A model generated the notes under the pieces. The model did no database searches. It had not been told where the DNA came from and saw only the letters and a program-made list of their open reading frames with translations. Below, piece after piece: positions 1 to 23,100 of a stretch of DNA of 64,000 nt (positions within the stretch are counted from its first letter, which is position 1; each line of letters starts with the position of its first letter). Both the position numbers and the translations under genes were made by a program. The stretch lies in assembly GCF_003991155.1 (NCBI RefSeq), contig NZ_CP031293.1; one strand, 5' to 3'. This DNA is from Escherichia coli (GTDB lineage Bacteria; Pseudomonadota; Gammaproteobacteria; Enterobacterales; Enterobacteriaceae).

Positions 1-118
1 TCTCTACCCTGCTTAATGCTGTTAGAGAAGCATTTAGACCCCTTATTTTTAATTACCTAAAGTATCCTCTATACATCTCTGTTATGAAACACCTCTGAAT
101 CCTTCATAAAACACATTA

Positions 119-178
119 TGACGCAAAGAACACTTTTCTAAGGTGATTCCCTTCCTGAACTCTGTTTCTTGCGTCAGA
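119..178. repeat. Imperfect inverted repeat (TGACGCAA...TTGCGTCA arms, about 30-bp spacer)
   Basis: Read directly: tgacgcaaagaacac at 119-133 and ctgtttcttgcgtca at 164-178; the outer 8 bp are perfectly complementary. Confidence 0.5.
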
Positions 179-180
179 GA

Positions 181-300
181 GCTACACAGAGAGCTTATAA
201 AGCTATTATTAATAATAAAGTAGATAAAGTAAGTAAGATAAGTAAGAAGATTAACTAAGATAGATAAGATTAATAAGATCAGAATTCTCTTTCGGTGTCG
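181..300. repeat. Purine-rich low-complexity tract of degenerate AAGATA/AAGTA units
   Basis: Read directly: aagtagataaagtaagtaagataagtaagaagattaactaagatagataagattaataagatc. Confidence 0.5.
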
Positions 301-323
301 CCTCTGGCTTTTCCACCGAAAAC

Positions 324-474
324 AATTACACGACTACAGAATGTAGGAAGTGAAATTGTATTGAGGCTTAGTGAAATTACACGAGGAAAGCAGAGTGTAA
401 TTGAGCTTTAGCCGCTCTCTCTTCGAGTAATTACACAACTACAGAGAATAACAGAGTTATTAAATGTAGGAGGG
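324..474. repeat. Direct repeats AATTACAC(G/A)ACTACAGA ... ATGTAGGA(A/G)G, with extra AATTACAC / GTGTAATT copies forming a short palindrome
   Basis: Copies at 324-350 and 428-474; inverted arms aattacac / gtgtaatt within 371-406. Confidence 0.5.
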
Positions 475-883
475 TAATTAAGAGTTAGAGAGAGTTAACA
501 CGTAAGCAATCAGATGATTGGTTAGGTGATTACTCTTACTGCGCACAGCGCAATAGTATTCCTTCGTGGGCGTTACCGCCAACGATAGTTACACGAAGAA
601 AGTAACGCTTTGCTTTCGGTGTGAGCGGAACGGGCCAGCCACAAAGCCCGAAAGGTAGCGGAGTAAGGCTGCTTGCCAGAGAGTGGAGCTAACGCCGGAA
701 GGCAAAAGATCATATATATAGTATAAAGAATATTATTTAATTATAGTATTGGTGGAACTCATTACCTAAGGTAAACCGGAGACCACTTCCAACGGTTAGG
801 CAACCACTTCCAATTGTGTTATTTCCCCTTTTACCCTAAGTAAATTTTAGCCTTTCGTTACATCCATTTATCACATAGCACTT

Positions 884-1018
884 ACCCTGTGTAAATCATA
901 GAATAATGCTCTCTATTCCCTGTGTAATTCCATACTAAAAAATTCAATGAAAAGTAGTTTAAAAGTGCAATGTTAGCTTTCTTCACTTTTACATCACTTT
1001 CGCTGCGCCTTGTGTAAT
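884..1018. repeat. Three direct copies of a CCYTGTGTAAW motif (iteron or operator-like)
   Basis: ccctgtgtaaat (884-895), ccctgtgtaatt (918-929), ccttgtgtaatg (1007-1018). Confidence 0.45.
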
Positions 1019-1312
1019 GCGGCTTACAGAGCACTATCAGAAATTATTGATCAAAAATCAACCTATTATTTGTCGAACAAGTTTTCTTTAATGCAACAAA
1101 AATTATTTTTTCAAAATAAACACACAATTTAATAGCTTGCTAATTTTACCAAAATGTAACTACATGATTCTCATGCAAGAAGTGTAGTGATAAGGCAGGC
1201 TAAATCACCACACTAAAAAACTTCGAATTTCGTAGTGAAAAAAGTACTTTACACACCTAATCAACACGCCCAATAATCACTACACACAAATCAATACAGA
1301 AGAAAAAAGAAG

Positions 1313-1864
1313 ATGGCTAATATTGGATACATTAGGGTATCGACTGTGCAACAAAACACAGACCGTCAATTAGCAGGAGTAACTCTTGATAAAGTCTTTG
1401 AAGATAAAGCGTCAGGCAAGAACACTCAGCGCCCACAGTTTGAGGCAATGATGAACTATGTGCGGGAGGGTGACGTGTTACACGTCCATAGTATTGATCG
1501 CCTTTGTCGTAATACAGCCGACCTTCTGGCAACTGTAGAGCAATTAACAAAGCGCGGCGTGTCTGTGCATTTCCATAAAGAAGACTTTAAGACAGGAAAG
1601 AACTCTCCCGCAGGGAATATGATGCTCACAGTTCTTGCAGCAGTGGCACAAATGGAACGTGAAATGATGCTTGAGCGTCAACGTGAAGGGATCGCCGCAG
1701 CCAAGGCCGCTGGACGTATAGCAAAACGTGGTAATGGAAAAGCAATTGATCGAGCGGGAATTGCTGCCGCTCTCGCGAATGGTGGCTCAATTCGGAGCGT
1801 AGCAAAAGATTTCAGTGTCAGCACGCAGACGGTGCAACGTATCAAGAAAGAGCAGGTGGCGTAA
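1313..1864 (+). CDS. Small serine recombinase (resolvase/invertase family)
   Basis: 183 aa. N-terminal IGYIRVSTVQQ motif with the catalytic Ser typical of serine recombinases; C-terminal helix-turn-helix (SIRSVAKDFSVSTQTVQRI). Confidence 0.8.
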   Translation: MANIGYIRVSTVQQNTDRQLAGVTLDKVFEDKASGKNTQRPQFEAMMNYVREGDVLHVHSIDRLCRNTADLLATVEQLTKRGVSVHFHKEDFKTGKNSPAGNMMLTVLAAVAQMEREMMLERQREGIAAAKAAGRIAKRGNGKAIDRAGIAAALANGGSIRSVAKDFSVSTQTVQRIKKEQVA

Positions 1865-2030: not shown

Positions 2031-2495
2031 TTATTGATTCAGTCGATCCCATTTAACCGCAGATACAATTCCCCAATTACCACTAGCATTAGGCCTACGC
2101 CACTTCGCGGTTTCCATTCCACGAAGGTATTCGAGAGCTTCATTGAACGAACTGAAACGTTTCTGGGCTGATTTTTCCCCTACTCTAAACGAACCATCGC
2201 GAGTACTTGCCAATCCTGGATGAAAACACGACCCATCTGCAGCATAAGGAACAAGTACCTCCTGATCATCAGGTTTCCTTGAATCAGAAGCCAGTAACTG
2301 CCAAGGCTCAATACGCAAAGCGTCAGCCAGAACCTCAATTGCATCAAGAGATGCATTAGAGCAACCACGCTCAATTCGACTCATATAACTACGTGCAAAA
2401 CCACACCGATCTGCAAAGGCCTCTTGGCTTAAGCCAATAGCTATACGGAACTCTTTTACTCGTTGTCCAAAAAGGTATCTCAGATTCTTTCGCAT
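2031..2495 (-). CDS. XRE-family helix-turn-helix regulator with an uncharacterised C-terminal domain
   Basis: Start trimmed to MRKNLRY. HTH segment IGLSQEAFADRCGFARSYMSRIERG is Cro/CI-like; divergent from the downstream secreted-protein gene. Confidence 0.7.
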   Translation of the reverse strand: MRKNLRYLFGQRVKEFRIAIGLSQEAFADRCGFARSYMSRIERGCSNASLDAIEVLADALRIEPWQLLASDSRKPDDQEVLVPYAADGSCFHPGLASTRDGSFRVGEKSAQKRFSSFNEALEYLRGMETAKWRRPNASGNWGIVSAVKWDRLNQ

Positions 2496-2605
2496 GGCAC
2501 AAAGATGCAATTTGACGCACCAATTAACCACGCACTAATCGTGACATTTTGAATCAATCATGTATTATTAGCATCACCATCCATTTGACACACCAAGGGA
2601 GACAA

Positions 2606-2953
2606 ATGAAAAAACTAGTATTTGCCGCTTTGTTAATTCCAGTGATGGGCCACGCCACAACCTTTTCCTGTAAAGCAATACAGGAAGGTCATATTGACTC
2701 GGGAAGTCAGAAAGTTTCTGTAGATTCAACTTTTGATATACAAGATAAAAAAATGACCATAAATCTTGGCGGTAAAACTTGGAGACTTGATTTGGTAGGT
2801 CAAAAAAGCATCGCAAAGATGTATGCTACACCTGACGGAGGGGTTGCAGCCACATACATTGACAATGGCAGTATACCGATATTTGTATTACGCCCTTCTA
2901 ATCCCGATGGGGAGATGGCTGTTTACACATTGAGTATGTGTTCTGAAGTATGA
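2606..2953 (+). CDS. Small exported protein of unknown function
   Basis: Start trimmed to MKKLVFAALLIPVMGHA, a signal-peptide-like N-terminus. No recognisable domain. Confidence 0.5.
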   Translation: MKKLVFAALLIPVMGHATTFSCKAIQEGHIDSGSQKVSVDSTFDIQDKKMTINLGGKTWRLDLVGQKSIAKMYATPDGGVAATYIDNGSIPIFVLRPSNPDGEMAVYTLSMCSEV

Positions 2954-3030
2954 TTGATCGGCGTGATATTCACGCCGTTTTTGGGGAAATTTGTATATTG
3001 AAAAATATAGAAATAGAACTTTTATCAAGC

Positions 3031-3756
3031 CTATTTATTAACAGGTAGTAATGTCAGATCGCCATAATGGGCTTGTCTATGGCAATTAGGACATAATGCA
3101 ATAGCATTTTCCACAGAGTCCTCCCCCCCCTTTGAAAGCCACTCAATATGATGAACTTCTAGAAATGGAGTACCATCTTCCTTTAGAAAAGGAGCATCTC
3201 GCTTACAATATTGACATTTTCCATTTGCACTCAAAAGAACTTCAGCAACTACATATGGGCTTCGTTTATAAACTCGTGTTGTTACTTCGATTAGTTCCGG
3301 GATTTTACTTTCTGTCGCTAAAATTTGCTTTCGTTCCACTGAAGATAATTTTGCAGCCGTCTCAACAGCTTCTTCGAAAACCGATTTTACTTGACGATAA
3401 CGCCACATCCCTTCTAAATCCTGGTATAATTCCCAAATACCGTGCACAGATGGTTGATAGATTTCAAAAATATTTCCACGCTTGAACAATCGGTCATACT
3501 TATGATGCCGATGAGTTACATCATCAGTTCGTCGGGCAGTTTTGTTGAAACTCCAGTAGCTCCGCTTACAATTAACTGTATTAGCAATTAAATTGAGCCA
3601 AGTATTATCTTTATAAGATGGAAATAGCTTTCTAAGATAATCATCTACCTGCTTAGCCGTTGCAGCCCCACCAAACTGATTAGCAATTATCTGTATGGTA
3701 ATAGCTCTTATCGGTTGATCGCCATACTTGTATTTTTTGCCTAAATTTTTAACCAT
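3031..3756 (-). CDS. McrA-like HNH endonuclease; candidate modification-dependent (type IV) restriction nuclease
   Basis: C-terminal CQYC...LEVHHIEWLSKGGEDSVENAIALCPNCHRQAH is an HNH motif with paired Cys zinc ligands. N-terminal roughly 150 aa unassigned. Confidence 0.6.
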   Translation of the reverse strand: MVKNLGKKYKYGDQPIRAITIQIIANQFGGAATAKQVDDYLRKLFPSYKDNTWLNLIANTVNCKRSYWSFNKTARRTDDVTHRHHKYDRLFKRGNIFEIYQPSVHGIWELYQDLEGMWRYRQVKSVFEEAVETAAKLSSVERKQILATESKIPELIEVTTRVYKRSPYVVAEVLLSANGKCQYCKRDAPFLKEDGTPFLEVHHIEWLSKGGEDSVENAIALCPNCHRQAHYGDLTLLPVNK

Positions 3757-5192: not shown

Positions 5193-5385
5193 AAACGCCC
5201 CCTTTTTGTACCTTAACAGCATGATTTATGGTCAAAAAGAGATACAACCACATAATTTTCAAGACTATTTTGGCCCCCTACGCTGGCATTATCCAGATCA
5301 GGTGATACGGGTATTTCTCAGCCTTCACGCAGAAGGGCACCCCGAGTCGTTTGGTTGCGATGATAAATCGCAAAGGAGGATGGTA

Positions 5386-11587: not shown

Positions 11588-12130
11588 TTAATCCTGCGCC
11601 ACACGCATAACCAGAGAAGATAACACATCACCTGATTGCACTGAATTATCTGTCAGCTTCAGGTATTTTGCTTTAAACGGAATAGCATATTGACCTTCCG
11701 CTGTTTTATAACTCTCAATGTTAAAAGGTGCAGAAACATCCAGGACATCGCTGTTATCACCTAAATAGAGATAGTACCCCACGGTATCGTTGCTACTGGC
11801 TATCGCCTTATCGTTTCCGGTTATTTTATCGTTGGTAATCAACGAGAGTTTTACACCAGCAACTTCTTTCGGACAGCTAATTTTTAACATGCTGCTGGTT
11901 ACACCGACTGCATCATCATAGGTCGAGTATTTAGCTTTACCTTCAAAGACAGTGGTTGGTACAGTTGGCATATTAATACTTACTGAATCGCCACCCGCTT
12001 CGAATTTACACGGAGATTCTGCAATATTCCCTTTAATGGTTAATGTTCCGGTATCAACGTCTGCGGCAAATACCCCAGCGCTCATAAAAAAAGAAGAAAA
12101 GACAGCGGCAGCAATAATTGAACGTTTCAT
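11588..12130 (-). CDS. yehD: Major fimbrial subunit YehD
   Basis: 180 aa, signal peptide; first gene of the operon, downstream of an AT-rich region. Confidence 0.9.
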   Translation of the reverse strand: MKRSIIAAAVFSSFFMSAGVFAADVDTGTLTIKGNIAESPCKFEAGGDSVSINMPTVPTTVFEGKAKYSTYDDAVGVTSSMLKISCPKEVAGVKLSLITNDKITGNDKAIASSNDTVGYYLYLGDNSDVLDVSAPFNIESYKTAEGQYAIPFKAKYLKLTDNSVQSGDVLSSLVMRVAQD

Positions 12131-14210: not shown

Positions 14211-16244
14211 ATGACTCAAGTCGCGAAGAAAATTCTGGTGACGTGCGCACTGCCGTACGCTAACGGCTCAATCCACCTCGGCCATATGCTGGAGCACATC
14301 CAGGCTGATGTCTGGGTCCGTTACCAGCGAATGCGCGGCCACGAGGTCAACTTCATCTGCGCCGACGATGCCCACGGCACACCGATCATGCTGAAAGCTC
14401 AGCAGCTCGGTATCACCCCGGAGCAGATGATTGGCGAAATGAGTCAGGAGCATCAGACTGATTTCGCAGGCTTTAACATCAGCTATGACAACTATCACTC
14501 GACGCACAGCGAAGAGAACCGCCAGTTGTCAGAACTTATCTACTCTCGCCTGAAAGAAAACGGTTTTATTAAAAACCGCACTATTTCTCAGCTGTACGAT
14601 CCGGAAAAAGGCATGTTCCTGCCGGACCGTTTTGTGAAAGGCACCTGCCCGAAATGTAAATCCCCGGATCAATACGGCGATAACTGCGAAGTCTGCGGCG
14701 CGACCTACAGCCCGACTGAATTGATCGAGCCGAAATCGGTGGTTTCTGGCGCTACGCCGGTAATGCGTGATTCTGAACACTTCTTCTTTGATCTGCCCTC
14801 TTTCAGCGAAATGTTGCAGGCATGGACCCGCAGCGGTGCGTTGCAGGAGCAGGTGGCAAATAAAATGCAGGAGTGGTTTGAATCCGGCCTGCAACAGTGG
14901 GATATCTCCCGCGACGCCCCTTATTTCGGTTTTGAAATTCCGAACGCGCCGGGCAAATATTTCTATGTCTGGCTGGACGCACCGATTGGCTATATGGGCT
15001 CTTTCAAGAATCTGTGTGATAAGCGCGGCGACAGCGTAAGCTTCGATGAATACTGGAAGAAAGATTCCACTGCCGAGCTGTATCACTTCATCGGTAAAGA
15101 TATCGTTTACTTCCACAGCCTGTTCTGGCCAGCAATGCTGGAAGGCAGCAACTTCCGCAAGCCGACCAACCTGTTTGTTCATGGCTATGTGACGGTGAAC
15201 GGCGCGAAGATGTCTAAGTCTCGCGGTACCTTTATTAAGGCCAGCACCTGGCTGAATCATTTTGACGCCGACAGCCTGCGTTACTACTACACTGCGAAAC
15301 TCTCTTCGCGCATTGATGATATCGATCTCAACCTGGAAGATTTCGTTCAGCGCGTGAATGCCGATATCGTTAACAAAGTGGTTAACCTGGCCTCCCGTAA
15401 TGCAGGCTTTATCAACAAACGTTTTGACGGCGTGCTGGCAAGCGAACTGGCTGACCCGCAGTTGTACAAAACCTTCACTGATGCCGCTGAAGTGATTGGT
15501 GAAGCGTGGGAAAGCCGCGAATTTGGTAAAGCAGTGCGCGAAATCATGGCGCTGGCTGATCTGGCTAACCGCTATGTCGATGAACAGGCTCCGTGGGTGG
15601 TGGCAAAACAGGAAGGCCGCGATGCCGACCTGCAGGCAATTTGCTCAATGGGCATAAACCTGTTCCGCGTGCTGATGACTTACCTGAAGCCGGTACTGCC
15701 GAAACTGACCGAGCGCGCAGAAGCATTCCTCAATACAGAACTGACCTGGGATGGTATCCAGCAACCGCTGCTGGGCCACAAAGTGAATCCGTTCAAAGCG
15801 CTGTATAACCGCATCGATATGAAGCAGGTTGAAGCACTGGTGGAAGCGTCTAAAGAAGAAGTGAAAGCAGCTGCCGCGCCAGTTACTGGCCCACTGGCAG
15901 ATGATCCGATTCAGGAAACCATCACCTTTGACGACTTCGCCAAAGTTGACCTGCGCGTGGCGCTGATCGAAAACGCAGAGTTTGTTGAAGGTTCTGACAA
16001 ACTGCTGCGCCTGACGCTGGATCTCGGCGGTGAAAAACGCAATGTCTTCTCCGGCATTCGTTCTGCTTACCCGGATCCGCAGGCACTGATTGGTCGTCAC
16101 ACCATTATGGTGGCTAACCTGGCACCACGTAAAATGCGCTTCGGTATCTCCGAAGGCATGGTGATGGCTGCCGGTCCTGGCGGGAAAGATATTTTCCTGC
16201 TAAGTCCGGATGCTGGTGCTAAACCGGGTCATCAGGTGAAATAA
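14211..16244 (+). CDS. metG: Methionyl-tRNA synthetase
   Basis: Start trimmed to [25 protein letters not shown], 677 aa; HLGH and KMSKS class I motifs. Confidence 0.97.
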
Positions 16245-20197: not shown

Positions 20198-23100
20198 ATG
20201 AAAACCTATATTTATCAGGACGAAAAATCACATAAATTCTGGGCAGTGGAGCAACAGGGAAACGAGCTGCATATTAGTTGGGGCAAAGTCAGTACCAACG
20301 GGCAAAGCCAGGTAAAAAGCTTTGCTGATGCTGCGGCGGCGGAAAAAGCGGAACTGAGGCTGATTGCGGAGAAGATGAAGAAGGGGTATGTGGAGCAAGC
20401 GAAGGATAATTCTTTGCAACCTTCCCAAACGGTAACGGATTCTCTCAAGGTAGCGGCCTTATCCACCATTATTCAGGAACAACCCTTTTGCGTAGCAGAA
20501 GCCCGTGTGGCTGACAAAAATACAGATGATGTTTTACCGTGGCTGGCGAAAGATATTGCTGTCGTTTTTCCGCCCGAAGTTGTACACACCACGTTAAGCC
20601 ATCGCCGCTTTCCCGGAGTTCCTGTTCAGCAAGCAGACAACTTGACCCAGTTACGTCGCTTAGCCTGTAGCGTGTCGCAACGGGATAATAAAACAGCCAC
20701 ATTTGACTTCAGCGCCTGTTCTTTAGTATGGCAAAACACCGTCGCCCAGGCGATCAGTCAGATCGACTGCCTGAAAACAACACAGTTACCATCACCAGTA
20801 ATGGCTGTACTCACGGCACTTGAAATGAAATGCACAAGATATAAAGTGCGTGAGGATGTTATGGATCAGATCATTCAGGAAGGCGGTCTGGAATATGCTA
20901 CTGATGTAATAATACACCTTCAACAGATTGATATTGAATGGAATTATGCGAATAATATCATTATTATTCTGCCGTCTGGCATTGCACCTGATAACTTGCA
21001 GCAATATTCCAGTTTTGAATTACGCCTACGGAAACATTTATCACTGGCGGAAGAGTCTCTCTGGCAAAAATGTGCACAAAAACTTATTGCCGCAATTCCA
21101 CATATTCCAGAATGGCGGCAACCATTAATTGCTTTGTTATTACCCGAAAAACCAGAAATTGCACATGAAATTGCCCAGCGTCTACTGGGGAAAAAAAAAT
21201 TACCCTCGCTTGAGTGGCTAAAAATAGTGGCGACTGATGAGCACATTCTTGCCTCATTAGAAAAATATCACGAGCCATATGCCATTTTTGATGATTACTA
21301 TTGTGGTGCGATATGGTCAGCCACCGTATTACAGGAGCAAGGTGTTGCAGCCCTGCCCCGATTTGCTCCCTATGCCGCAAGTGACTACTGCGCCGATGTG
21401 TTGCGTCATATCAATCATCCGTTCGCATTAACACTGCTTATACGTGTAGCCGGGCATACTAAACGCTGTCACGATCGAATGACGAAAGCCTGCGCTGCGT
21501 TCCCACACGCAGCACTGGCAGCACTGGCGGAACTTCTAGTGCAAAAAGAAGAGAATAGTTGGCGCATTATGCTAATGACGATGCTTATCTCGCAACCAGC
21601 ACTGGCAGAACAGGTCATTCCCTGGCTTTCGACACCCGCAGCTGCAGTGCTGAAATCATGCCAGCAACAACTGACACAGCCATCAAACCATGCCAGCACC
21701 GATCTACTGCCGGCCATAGTAGTCTCCCCACCATGGCTTTCGAAAAAGAAAAAATCGTCGATTCCGGTGCTTGATTTAGCACCATTAGGCATTGAGCCAA
21801 TCAGTTATCTGACAGAAGAAATCAGTAATCAACTTTTGGCGAAATATATCTGGTATTCAAAACACATCACGGTTAGTCATGAAGAAAGTACTGCCAATCT
21901 GTTGGCAAGGATGGGTTTTCAACGACGGATCGCTGGTACATATATTAAAGCTCCCGAAGCGGTAGTTGAGGCATGGCTAAATGAAGATTATTCAACCTTA
22001 ATAAGTGAATTTAAGGTGTTTCATTCACCTACCGGGCATTATTGGCATTTGGGGATTTTGACAACATTGCCGCTGGAGAAAGCAATAAGAGCATGGAATG
22101 CCCTTACTCTATCTCCGCATACCGATACCGAATACGCCATGTTACATTTTGGACTCAAAGGATTACCTGGGTTAGTAAACTCACTTGCACGTTATCCACA
22201 GGAAGCCTTGCCCATAACGAATTACTTCGCAGCGAGTGAGCTGGCTCCTGCCGTCGCCCGCGCCTTCAACAAACTCAAAACCCTACGACAAGACGCCCGC
22301 ACCTGGCTGCTGAAATACCCGGAACACGCCATTACCGGCCTGCTACCTTCGGCGCTCGGCAAAGCCGGTGAAGCACAGGATAACGCCCGCGCTGCCTTGC
22401 GTATGCTTATCGAAAACGATCATCAGCCATTACTGCAAGAAATCGCCCGGCGTTATAACCAGCCGGAAGTAACAGATGCGGTGAACGCTATGCTTGCGCT
22501 CGATCCCTTAGATAATCACCCGACAAAAATCCCCACTCTTCCGGCCTTTTATCAGCCATCGATCTGGACCCGCCCGGTATTAAAAGCAAATGCCCAATCA
22601 CTGCCAGATAACGCCCTCCTCCACCTCGGTGAAATGCTCCGCTTCCCTCAGGAAGAGGCTCTGTATCCGGGATTATTGCAGGTGAAAGATGCCTGTACCG
22701 CCGACTCACTGGCTGAATTTGCCTGGGATCTGTTTACCGCCTGGCAGACCGCTGGCGCACCGTCGAAAGAAAGTTGGGCGTTCACTGCGTTAGGCGTTCT
22801 CGGTAACGATGACACCGCCCGCAAACTGACGCCATTAATCCGCGCCTGGCCTGGCGAATCTCAGCATAAACGTGCCACCGTTGGGTTGGATATTCTCGCT
22901 GCTATCGGCAGCGATATCGCCCTGATGCAGCTTAACGGCATCGCCCAGAAACTGAAATTCAAAGCATTACAGGAGCGAGCAAAAGAAAAAATTGCCGACA
23001 TTGCCGAAAGCCGCGAACTCACAGTGGCAGAACTTGAAGATCGGTTAGCACCGGATCTCGGTCTGGATGATAACGGTTCGCTGCTGCTGGATTTCGGGCC

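Follow-up and report, generated by a model that had tools for sequence, protein, structure and literature searches.

What does a bacterial chromosome keep in more than 1.3 kb of DNA that encodes no protein? The window analyzed here, a stretch of 64,000 nucleotides of Escherichia coli, begins with such a region (positions 1–1312, directly upstream of a serine recombinase gene), for which a sequence-only reading had reported the absence of any open reading frame (ORF) of 60 aa or more and had offered three interpretations: a set of recombination sites, the iterons of an origin, or a structured non-coding RNA. We confirmed the absence of such ORFs on both strands; the longest ORF touching the region comprises 50 aa (positions 882–1034, – strand). 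The full gap extends 451 bp further left than had been noted and measures 1764 bp (L001 14549–16312, corresponding to window positions –451 to 1312), and positions 1–1312 represent the right three-quarters of this 1.76-kb non-coding control region. The RefSeq annotation beneath the match is empty in the genomes listed. A 58-aa ORF is called by PGAP in one distant relative, and its frame measures 46, 58 or 90 aa across copies. As described below, the three interpretations are partly supported: each fits a different part of the region, mostly through features that had not been listed.

The gap is located in a 7.7-kb island, whose insertion point in E. coli is the thiM TPP riboswitch. An 82-bp duplication of this riboswitch forms the island edges, and between the two riboswitch copies the island encodes a tyrosine integrase, a Rep initiator, the serine recombinase and restriction-like cargo. 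The island is a small integrative, satellite-like element in reduced form, which has lost all capsid genes and has kept the hairpin module described below. The same layout, with an ORF-free gap of 1.5–2.9 kb, was found in E. coli, Klebsiella, Erwinia typographi and metagenome contigs; in these Escherichia, Klebsiella, Erwinia and metagenome relatives the gap is flanked by a leftward Rep operon on one side and a recombinase slot on the other, and it was free of ORFs in every family member examined. Approximately 12% of complete E. coli genomes match part of the non-coding region, and type-A copies are 94–99% identical to one another. E. coli copies number roughly 770; strain TCM3e1 (NZ_CP066806) is one carrier of the island, and a thrW-type element is carried by further strains. 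A profile search of genome contigs with the Rep profile returned only Erwinia typographi. No match to the region was obtained from the phage record collection searched; in the plasmid collection, matches were confined to window positions 914–1311, and one plasmid carries this segment together with the recombinase gene. Our literature searches found no description of the element family or of its non-coding region. Searches for the cos sites of lambda and P2 yielded chance-level matches only. A 10/12 match to lambda cosN is present in types C, D and E and in none of types A and B.

The features of the region are listed in Table 1. To the left of the window, a near-consensus leftward promoter is followed by a terminator-like leader hairpin, a 60-aa gene and Rep. 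Within the window, the insertion at 29–289 is nearly invariant among 15 type-A copies. The inverted repeat claimed at 119–178 was recovered, with arms at 119–132 and 163–176 that are 86% complementary and fold as a stem-loop (119–176/178), and the purine-rich tract was likewise detected (TRF arrays at 218–279 and four overlapping 27-nt copies at 216–282).

Table 1. Features of the non-coding control region and the adjacent recombinase gene (window positions)
Feature	Position	Strand	Basis or remark
Conserved block and small stem-loop (UCUCUACCCUGCUUAAUGCUGUUAGAGA)	1–28	+	Predicted fold; types C, D and E have the homologous block AUUCCCUACCCUGUUUAAAUCGCUCUACGGG
Type-A-specific insertion: imperfect hairpin 119–178 and purine-rich (A)TAAG-like tract ~205–282	29–289	+	Missing between the same flanks in types C, D and E
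Stem-loop UUUCGGUG...CACCGAAA around the GCC-UCU-GGC mini-hairpin, which is found family-wide	290–321	+	CUCUGGC(A)C block conserved in all types
Recurring hairpin motif 'ACUAC', copy 1, AAUUACAC-GA-CUACA...UGUAG-GA-AGUGAAAUU	322–359	+	Repeat 1 of the sequence-only reading
Stem-loop GGCUUAGUGA[AAUUACAC...GUGUAAUU]GAGCUUUAGCC	365–413	+	RNAalifold on plain MAFFT alignment, helices 1–2
Long stem-loop, ACUAC motif copy 2, with inner AAUAAC/GUUAUU hairpin	414–495	+	Helices 3–7; repeat 2 of the same reading
Stem-loop CACGUAAGCAAUC AGAU GAUUGGUUAGGUG, directly 5' of H1	499–528	+	Helix 8
H1, nearly invariant hairpin GCGC-ACA-GCGC followed by AA	540–552	+	Motif search; helix 9, invariant in alignment A6
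Branched stem-loop CUUCGUG[GGCG-UUAC-CGCC]...CACGAAG	562–598	+	Predicted fold
Conserved 3' core	592–719	+	Covariance model built only from non-A types
AT-rich stretch, presumed DNA-unwinding element	712–752		~23% G+C (measured over 691–750)
Three class-III iterons GGAACTCATTACC, GGAGACCACTTCC and GGCAACCACTTCC, presumed Rep binding sites	754–811	+	Starts at 754, 778 and 799
Conserved block: TGTGTAAW boxes 885–897, 918–930 and 1007–1018; CGTTACA half-iteron ~853–862; hairpin 951–1000	830–1100		Repeat search (D9, I5)
Recombinase-proximal control region	1182–1285		Inverted repeats and promoter
Serine recombinase gene, 183 aa, resolvase/invertase family	1313–1864	+	PHROG 125 'DNA invertase', E = 2e-61

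Positions 290–706 constitute a chain of conserved stem-loops that fold on the + strand and carry compensatory changes. Separate folds of types A, D and E each yield the ACUAC hairpin motif. The direct repeats AATTACAC...GTAGGAGG that had been described here do recur (AATTACAC at 324, 375 and 429, family D2), but they are hairpin arms, belonging to two copies of this single motif. The inner stem AAUUACAC/GUGUAAUU of the following stem-loop appears as ACUGG/CCAGU and other pairings in other types. In the stem at 414–495, 100% of the cells are paired, and the changes on both sides include CUCUCUCU/AGAGAGAG to CUCUACCU/AGGUAGAG and ACAG/UGU to ACGG/CGU. Helix 8 is 99% paired, with three pairs changed on both sides and many G·U pairs, and its counterparts in types D, E, C and L048 have different yet complementary stems. 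In every type, H1 anchors the 3' module. The subdomain that follows it at 562–598 is variable, and other types have between one and three different hairpins in its place. The 3' core contains helices P1 (609–622/692–706), P2 (633–635/675–677) and P3 (636–640/667–671, with a 3-nt YUU bulge at 672–674), together with the conserved junctions UGAGCGGAACG and GAGUG, and ends with AAGAUC at the AT-rich edge. In type B, a 34-nt helix spans 228 nt. In all cases the module ends at the AT-rich edge, irrespective of the iteron class beyond it.

We examined the covariation of these helices between types. The covariance model built from non-A types matched positions 592–719 of the window with 34.3 bits (rough E-value of 1e-4); it matched once per family locus, and no match was observed in the unrelated control loci searched. 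In the alignment of the 3' core (A5), which was fitted to the covariance model, 88% of the cells pair, compared with 34–53% when the partners were slid, and eight pairs are changed on both sides, compared with two or three in the slid controls; the observed score was reached by none of 500 shuffles. For homologues of window positions 361–555 (alignment A6, obtained by plain MAFFT and RNAalifold), 45 pairs were found, of which 98.7% of the cells are paired (25–42% in slid controls), and nine pairs are changed on both sides (0–1 in slid controls). The independent events are few, because most of the changes on both sides separate few clades (e.g. type A from type D, six sequences each). Within type A alone, divergence is too low to decide, with five compensatory pairs against 30 pairs containing at least one non-canonical cell.

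Several observations concern the folded strand and the nature of the folded molecule. The helices of A6 contain approximately 35 G·U cells against two A·C cells, a GGAA loop is changed to GAAA in one copy, types C and D have tandem G·A pairs within P3, and the consensus folding energy of segments around H1 is lower on the + strand. The folding energy of the whole region was rejected as strand evidence, because a coding control was equally biased and the measure is confounded by base composition, although the + strand was the more stable in 14 of 15 types. RNAalifold, applied to a single MAFFT alignment of 15 very divergent sequences, was informative within positions –142 to +172 relative to H1. 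The search of RNA families with covariance models that had been proposed as a check (Rfam 15, 4227 models, permissive cmscan of the window and L015, L010, L044 and L003, representing five sequence types) gave no relevant match, returning only the TPP riboswitch, a tRNA and chance-level matches, and ARAGORN detected no tRNA or tmRNA in the region. No sigma-70 consensus promoter directed into the hairpin chain was detected in the window, L015 or L012, and neither an intrinsic terminator nor a defined 3' end was found after the chain. Readings of short motifs as sigma-54, boxA/boxB (nut) or Hfq ARN sites were dropped after inspection by eye, because these motifs are not conserved between types. 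The hairpin array looks like a large structured RNA with no relation in Rfam, and among the three interpretations the structured non-coding RNA is supported, as judged from covariation and G·U pairs on the + strand, for approximately 290–706. If it is RNA, this candidate resembles GOLLD, ROOL, OLE, raiA and HEARO in being several hundred nucleotides long, multi-branched, modular and carried on mobile or phage-related DNA; it differs from them in having no Rfam 15 match, in occurring in Enterobacterales, in being tied to an origin and in having subdomains that are swapped like cassettes.

Downstream of the hairpin chain, the AT-rich stretch occupies the same position in all types, whatever the iteron class. 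The iterons adjacent to it (GGAAMYCAYTTCC-like) are spaced by 24 and 21 bp, roughly multiples of the helical repeat, and are the sole matches with one mismatch in the 64 kb; relatives have four to seven clean copies. Rep is a protein of 239 aa that matches phage replication-initiator families, both O-like and DnaD-like (phrog_270, 186, 345 and 391). In the examined loci in which both were readable, the Rep N-terminal type was associated with the iteron class (Rep1 with III, Rep2 with II, Rep4 with I, and diverged Rep1 with IV). Class-III iterons were present in every sampled element with the Rep N-terminal type of the window and other classes accompanied other Rep types, and this pairing held regardless of the type of the hairpin module. 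Because the iteron class follows the Rep N-terminal type, we predict from sequence that positions 712–811 are an iteron-type replication origin. The earlier suggestion of origin iterons therefore holds for repeats that it did not list, beside an AT-rich stretch that it did not list either (754/778/799 and 691–750, respectively), and not for those that it did. Three or four iteron classes coexist in some elements, and isolated half-iterons persist in the window. The predicted origin resembles those of lambdoid phages and theta plasmids (lambda O/ori, P1, F, R6K and pSC101) in its tandem repeats of approximately 21–24 bp beside an AT-rich stretch, in the nearby initiator gene and in the concerted change of initiator specificity and iteron sequence. 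However, it lies approximately 1.2 kb from rep and not inside or beside it, no DnaA box was found in the region, the window has only three degenerate iterons, and some relatives combine several classes.

To the right of the predicted origin, the block at 830–1100 is common to the type A and type B elements of E. coli, whether or not they have a recombinase. The CCYTGTGTAAW repeats claimed here (CCCTGTGTAA boxes) were recovered at two positions (D9) together with the third, and six of the ten copies of GTGTAAT in the 64-kb window fall within 325–1018. The TGTGTAAW boxes are similar to one half of the palindromic iterons (TGTAAC-N5-GTTACA) that Rep3-type elements carry.

Immediately upstream of the recombinase gene, an inverted pair, GTGTAGTGAT (1182–1191) and ATCACCACAC (1204–1213), is followed by a third copy (1276–1285) that overlaps a sigma-70-like promoter (TTTACA-18-AATAAT, 1248–1277); these inverted repeats, starting at 1182, 1204 and 1276, were also absent from the sequence-only reading. 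In other genomes, segment 914–1311 is found together with the recombinase gene; where an element has another serine recombinase, the inverted repeats at this place are also different (GTCTCAAAAGG). NCBIfam matches of the recombinase were below the cut-off. This arrangement resembles res sites (Tn3/gamma-delta, RK2 ParA and Sin), in which inverted repeats also lie upstream of the gene for a recombinase of resolvase size, overlap its promoter and change with the recombinase type; the res sites, however, comprise three defined subsites, while one clear inverted pair and one further half-site were seen here. A candidate set of recombinase sites is plausible for 1182–1285 only, and not for the repeats originally proposed as such. 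A Hin/Gin-type invertible switch was considered and rejected, as flanking inverted repeats of the required kind were not found. Each full-length genome copy among the matches listed is a single collinear piece with no inversion, and the 34-nt inverted repeat of type B has one orientation in approximately 15 copies.

The explanation that we favor, and to which we give about an even chance, is that an iteron origin is preceded by a large, origin-directed structured RNA in the control region of a satellite-like island. The modules of the region are, from the left, a leftward promoter with its leader hairpin, a stem-loop chain, the predicted origin, the TGTGTAAW block, and the recombinase promoter with inverted-repeat sites; the chain extends over 0.4–0.9 kb on the + strand, well supported for 290–706, with its 3' end abutting the origin. 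After excision, Rep would bind the iterons and the AT-rich stretch would be opened, while rightward transcription of the hairpin chain into the origin would yield a long structured RNA that may activate, prime or set the frequency of initiation in cis. Replicated multimers might then be resolved by the recombinase at its own upstream sites. How the region is built, that it is homologous in several genera, that its base pairs covary, which strand folds and that Rep types go with iteron classes are all shown by the data; we infer that the folded molecule is RNA, as we do its start and its action, and a role of the chain in replication is suggested by its position and orientation only. A more specific proposal, which we hold tentatively and with less assurance, is that positions 290–706 (possibly extending left to approximately –230) represent a new class of large (0.4–0.9 kb), modular RNA of satellite-like islands in Enterobacterales, transcribed into the iteron origin and needed there as a pre-primer, R-loop former or scaffold, with subdomains swapped like cassettes. 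The likeness to ColE1 RNA II and to transcriptional activation of ori-lambda is positional only: the folded strand is oriented toward the origin, and the structure stops at the AT-rich edge. The ColE1 origin works without a Rep, its RNA II promoter is defined and it has an antisense RNA I, whereas the island has a Rep–iteron system and no recognizable promoter, and RNA II has no sequence or Rfam relation to the island region.

Such an RNA could also act in trans, controlling genes of the element or interfering with a helper phage, in the manner of P4 CI RNA immunity or as has been proposed for the inter-inverted-repeat (IIR) transcript of PLE, with no role at the origin. In the satellites P4 and PLE, the non-coding regions give rise to non-coding RNAs that are used or abundantly expressed. 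In the window, positions 324–1018 contain AAUUACAC and GUGUAAU boxes in either orientation, a 31-nt pair (372–402/902–932) is 71% complementary, and the promoter and terminator-like hairpin before the Rep operon would suit control by antitermination or termination. Nevertheless, we regard this possibility as unlikely: RNAduplex comparisons with the leaders of nine island genes gave z-scores of –1.6 to +1.7, nothing above shuffled controls; only types A and B have the boxes, and homologous hairpins elsewhere use other stem sequences; and the module is fixed in position and orientation at the origin edge and is kept in a reduced island without capsid genes. What the P4 CI RNA and its seqA-seqB-seqC immunity system would have in common with the island is a regulatory RNA encoded by the satellite, with repeated complementary boxes, and operon control by termination near the start. 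The CI RNA is approximately 69 nt long and arises by processing of the leader of its target operon, whereas the candidate described here is up to ten times longer and is located on the strand opposite to the Rep operon, with no leader complementarity detected. Less probable again is that the hairpins act as single-stranded DNA, serving as primosome-assembly or priming signals (phiX174-type pas or G4-type ssi) exposed when the origin opens. This would agree with the position of the chain against the unwinding element, with complementarity conserved on one strand only, with the empty promoter search, and with the DDFDIPF end of the Rep proteins, which resembles the acidic tip through which E. 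coli SSB recruits partners such as PriA. The known signals of the pas and ssi kinds, however, are single hairpins or sets of 50–150 nt, while the chain is a multi-branched array of 0.4–0.9 kb with long-range closing helices (P1 and the 34-nt helix of type B), and the frequent G·U(T) pairs in long helices and the swap of one GNRA loop for another fit RNA better.

That the repeats are double-stranded binding sites, either a res or invertible-switch set for the serine recombinase or operators of an XRE-type regulator, appears very improbable, even though the recombinase belongs to the resolvase/invertase family and its gene is immediately preceded by inverted repeats whose half-sites match. The stems change while complementarity is kept and the loops vary freely, which is the opposite of what protein half-sites show; G·U pairs would amount to mismatched half-sites; the chain is kept in members that have no recombinase or have a tyrosine recombinase in the slot; and the copies listed are all collinear, with the behavior of recombinase sites seen only at 1182–1285. 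The least credible reading, to which we give almost no weight, is that the region is a decayed, functionless spacer, consisting of remnants of old genes or iterons or of stuffer that adjusts the packaged genome size. The range in length (1.5 to 2.9 kb), the mixed iteron classes and stray half-iterons, and the type-specific insertion at 29–289 would be in line with such a spacer, but the architecture is conserved across three genera with covariation, the 94–99% identical type-A copies have very few listed variable paired positions within 100–600, and every examined member is free of ORFs.

The closest analogue of this region is the non-coding region of PLE, a satellite of Vibrio, which measures 2.7–3 kb, contains several repeat classes and has its origin in the right quarter, and for which an abundant non-coding transcript was detected (PMC7145576, PMC7567579). 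Both are parts of small integrative elements in which a leftward gene cluster adjoins a multi-kb, ORF-free and repeat-rich region, with an iteron origin in its right part and an initiator of the element's own (whose binding is predicted in the present case). The likeness to the Vibrio cholerae element is an analogy of layout, with no sequence relation known. The PLE initiator belongs to RepA_N, whereas that of the island is an O/DnaD-like winged-helix protein; the PLE transcript, which is located between inverted repeats, forms pairs with the leaders of genes, and no such pairing was found for the island, which has an extended series of covarying stem-loops in its non-coding part.

Should the hairpin chain prove to be RNA, a large and ornate non-coding RNA listed in no database would reside in E. 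coli, the most tractable bacterium, on an element small enough to be cloned whole. Its function could then be tested directly, which has so far been difficult in the case of GOLLD, ROOL and OLE. Regardless of what the RNA proves to be, unannotated gaps of 1.5–3 kb in hundreds of E. coli genomes are explained, and an origin with swappable Rep–iteron pairs is defined. As an enterobacterial counterpart of the PLE non-coding region, the region points to a design shared among phage satellites.

The window comes from the E. coli chromosome, and a TPP riboswitch lies at 5259-5354, adjoining rcnR-rcnA. Strain TCM3e1 (locus L001; window position = L001 position - 15000) carries a 7.7-kb island between 82-bp direct repeats of the thiM riboswitch, insertion in this riboswitch having left a copy at either end. 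Given the limits of the island's ORF-free gap (see the table), window 1-1312 is therefore only its right three-quarters. We found that 78 complete E. coli genomes matched window 1-1312 over at least 80% of its length and that part of it had a match in 658 of 5426 genomes; among the matches listed, none had annotation beneath it, bar a short hypothetical ORF in two distant relatives. A thiM-type riboswitch also adjoins related elements in Klebsiella (thiM side), Erwinia (L044) and a Logan metagenome contig (L010), the match being present in both L044 and L010.

The 239-aa island protein matches phage replication-initiator families, O-like and DnaD-like. Relatives of ~12 kb, located at thrW or a tRNA-Gly gene, carry in addition a major capsid gene of the lambda-E type with a few tail-like genes; no terminase or portal was recognisable in them, and we accordingly interpret the family as one of phage satellites. 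Klebsiella and Erwinia have smaller relatives, located at thiM. Every member keeps the ORF-free gap (1507, 1764, 2013, 2014, 2065, 2182, 2822, 2906 or 2939 bp) between a leftward 60-63-aa gene with Rep and a right-hand slot that holds the serine recombinase, a 186-aa tyrosine recombinase or nothing. In two metagenome elements (L010 3943-4503 and L011 879-1439), the slot is filled by an unrelated enzyme, this 186-aa protein, which comprises a tyrosine-recombinase catalytic domain only. The full-size relatives (L002 4414-8322; L010 10164-13376) encode a lambda-E-type capsid protein, a tail-fibre/lysin-like protein and a protein of ~610-620 aa that has a tape-measure-like match; for a ~12-kb satellite in which no portal or terminase was recognisable, this gene set is unusual. 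The stretch from slot to integrase is a cargo hotspot, its content varying among members; relatives carry a TIR protein, HamA with a helicase (Hachiman-like), or an M78 peptidase with Beta_protein.

Features of the TCM3e1 island and related elements (L010, L011, L012, L013 and L044 are loci of relatives)
Feature	Location	Strand	Remark
Island repeats	L001 12544-12625 / 20276-20357		82-bp duplication of thiM TPP riboswitch
Island gene 1		+	HTH-like
Island genes 2-4		-	81-aa, 239-aa, 60-aa
ORF-free gap, after 60-aa gene	L001 14549-16312		1764 bp
Right of gap		+	serine recombinase
After recombinase		-	XRE/controller-like gene
After XRE-like gene		+	small secreted-type protein
After small secreted-type protein		-	HNH protein resembling Type IV restriction enzymes
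Last listed gene		-	tyrosine integrase
Leftward promoter and terminator-like hairpin	window about -313 to -424		ahead of 60-aa gene and Rep
Cargo hotspot	window 2031-3756		controller-like HTH protein and HNH protein matching Type IV methyl-directed restriction enzymes
Cargo hotspot in relatives	L010 2373-3518; L013 871-4340; L012 3424-5666		
cosN-like match (GGGCGACGATCT)	L010 5402; L011 2312; L044 3021		same conserved place in three elements
Rep1			iteron class GGAAnTCATTTCC
Rep2			iteron class GTGACCTACCCC
Rep4			iteron class AACAGAATTCTGT
Diverged Rep1 (Klebsiella, Erwinia, two Logan metagenome contigs)			iteron class TTGCCGGGGT

The sequence-only reading had listed an inverted repeat, a purine-rich tract, direct repeats and TGTGTAAW-type repeats in 1-1312, and all four were found where it placed them; the direct repeats are present, but they form the arms of a hairpin motif that occurs twice. 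In its conserved form, AUUAgCACrACUACrG ... yGUAGGAGGGuUAAU, this motif has a purine-rich internal loop, and it folds independently in types A (the window), D and E. Homologues were gathered from viral and metagenome contigs by a nearly invariant hairpin common to all members, GCGC-AYA-GCGC (540-552; H1), from which a module of 170-300 nt extends to an AT-rich edge. The module occurs in at least five types (A-E) and in mosaics. Its helices differ in sequence between types and keep their complementarity, as in helix P3 (CAGCC/GGCUG, UGUCC/GGACA or UGACC/GGUCA, and in types C and D CGAAC/GUGAG with tandem G.A), and the junctions between them are conserved (AACGCUUUGCU, UGAGCGGNACGGG and GAGUR). 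The type B module is closed by a 34-nt, 88% complementary helix across 228 nt (L003 11339-11372 with 11601-11634), the enclosed segment having a single orientation in ~15 copies. As an alternative or tertiary pairing, the 5΄ strand of helix P1 (UUGCUUUCGGUG) could possibly pair with the 3΄ arm of the 290-321 hairpin (314-325 with 610-621), and the conserved ACGCUUUGCUUUC with the loop of the 365-413 hairpin (386-398 with 605-617); the latter complementarity was not seen by eye in type D. Segment 29-289, flanked by two family-wide blocks and containing both the 119-178 hairpin and the purine tract, is missing in types C, D and E.

A covariance model of the 3΄ core, built from non-A sequences only, gave exactly one match per family locus searched, including window 592-719, and zero matches in unrelated control loci. 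In the core alignment, 88% of cells were paired, compared with 34-53% with slid partners, eight pairs had changed on both sides (2-3 when slid), and the covariation score was reached by 0 of 500 shuffles. The upstream hairpins were examined in six sequences each of types A and D, homologous to 361-555 and aligned by plain MAFFT; RNAalifold folded this alignment into 45 pairs, with 98.7% of cells paired (25-42% when slid) and nine pairs changed on both sides (0-1 when slid). The covariance-model check that had been proposed returned zero Rfam family matches for the non-coding region in any type examined, and the hairpin chain fits no described RNA family.

Such a chain could be folded as RNA or as single-stranded DNA. 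In the alignment of 361-555 homologues, the helices contain ~35 G.U cells and only two A.C cells, and therefore the + strand folds; consensus folding energies around H1 were also lower on this strand, and one copy has GAAA in place of the GGAA loop. On these grounds a + strand RNA reading toward the origin is favoured over folded single-stranded DNA, although three results count against RNA: no sigma-70-like promoter facing the chain was found in three types, no terminator was found after it, and Rfam gave no family match in any type examined. The strand asymmetry of folding energy over the whole region was dropped as evidence, a coding control being biased likewise.

The G+C content of window 691-750 is 23%, and three repeats follow this AT-rich stretch, at 754, 778 and 799; those of relatives are cleaner, more numerous and in distinct classes. 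In fetched loci where both were readable, the N-terminal (winged-helix) type of Rep predicted the iteron class, a pairing that would be expected for an initiator and its iterons and that assorts independently of the upstream module type. No DnaA box was found in the non-coding region. The TGTGTAAW boxes, within a conserved block (830-1100), are similar to half-sites of the iterons found in Rep3-type elements, which are palindromic (TGTAAC-N5-GTTACA). By its sequence, the origin appears to be an ordinary iteron origin of known kind. The Rep proteins (L001 13500-14219, - strand, left of the window; homologues P0004-P0035) are mosaics, their C-terminal halves and N-terminal winged-helix types being swapped between copies. 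The C-terminus of most is DDFDIPF or DSIPF and resembles the acidic tip of E. coli SSB, a hint that SSB partners such as PriA may be recruited. Some elements (L002 12740-13110, L090, L004) have three or four iteron classes in tandem and a gap of up to 2.8-2.9 kb, and lack a recombinase gene; they may be responsive to several initiators, or may be scars of recombination.

Segment 914-1311 occurs only where the recombinase gene is present, and its GTGTAGTGAT inverted repeats lie over the recombinase promoter; the repeats at this position are different in elements that encode another serine recombinase. We read these repeats as a putative res-like or autoregulatory site, and the recombinase sites are probably of known kind. 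Left of the window, a near-consensus leftward promoter (TTGACA-17-AATAAT with TG; L001 14687-14659), conserved in two relatives (L012 and L015), is followed within ~60 nt by a hairpin with a U-run (L001 ~14576-14607), located ~20 nt ahead of the 60-aa gene's ribosome-binding site. This leader hairpin has a strong consensus-fold signal on the minus strand and, by eye, compensatory changes between E. coli and Klebsiella; the layout also occurs in type-E elements and those of the Klebsiella type. Promoter and hairpin together are reminiscent of the late promoter and terminator of lambdoid phages, and by analogy the Rep operon could depend on an antiterminator. In the conserved block that lies to the right of the iterons in types C, D and E, GGGCGACGATCT agrees with lambda cosN (12 nt) in 10 positions; chance alone would yield one match of this quality in each element, and types A and B have none.

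The closest known layout is the non-coding region of PLE, a Vibrio cholerae phage satellite, which spans 2.7-3 kb with several repeat classes, has a RepA-bound iteron origin in its right quarter and expresses an abundant non-coding transcript (PMC7145576, PMC7567579). In its position and origin-directed orientation, the hairpin chain is also similar to ColE1 RNA II and to transcriptional activation of ori-lambda, but lacks the defining features of either system. The finding as a whole is real and only partly ordinary: judged from its conservation and covariation, the 0.4-0.9-kb hairpin array makes a good candidate for a large structured RNA of a new kind, associated with the origin of a satellite.
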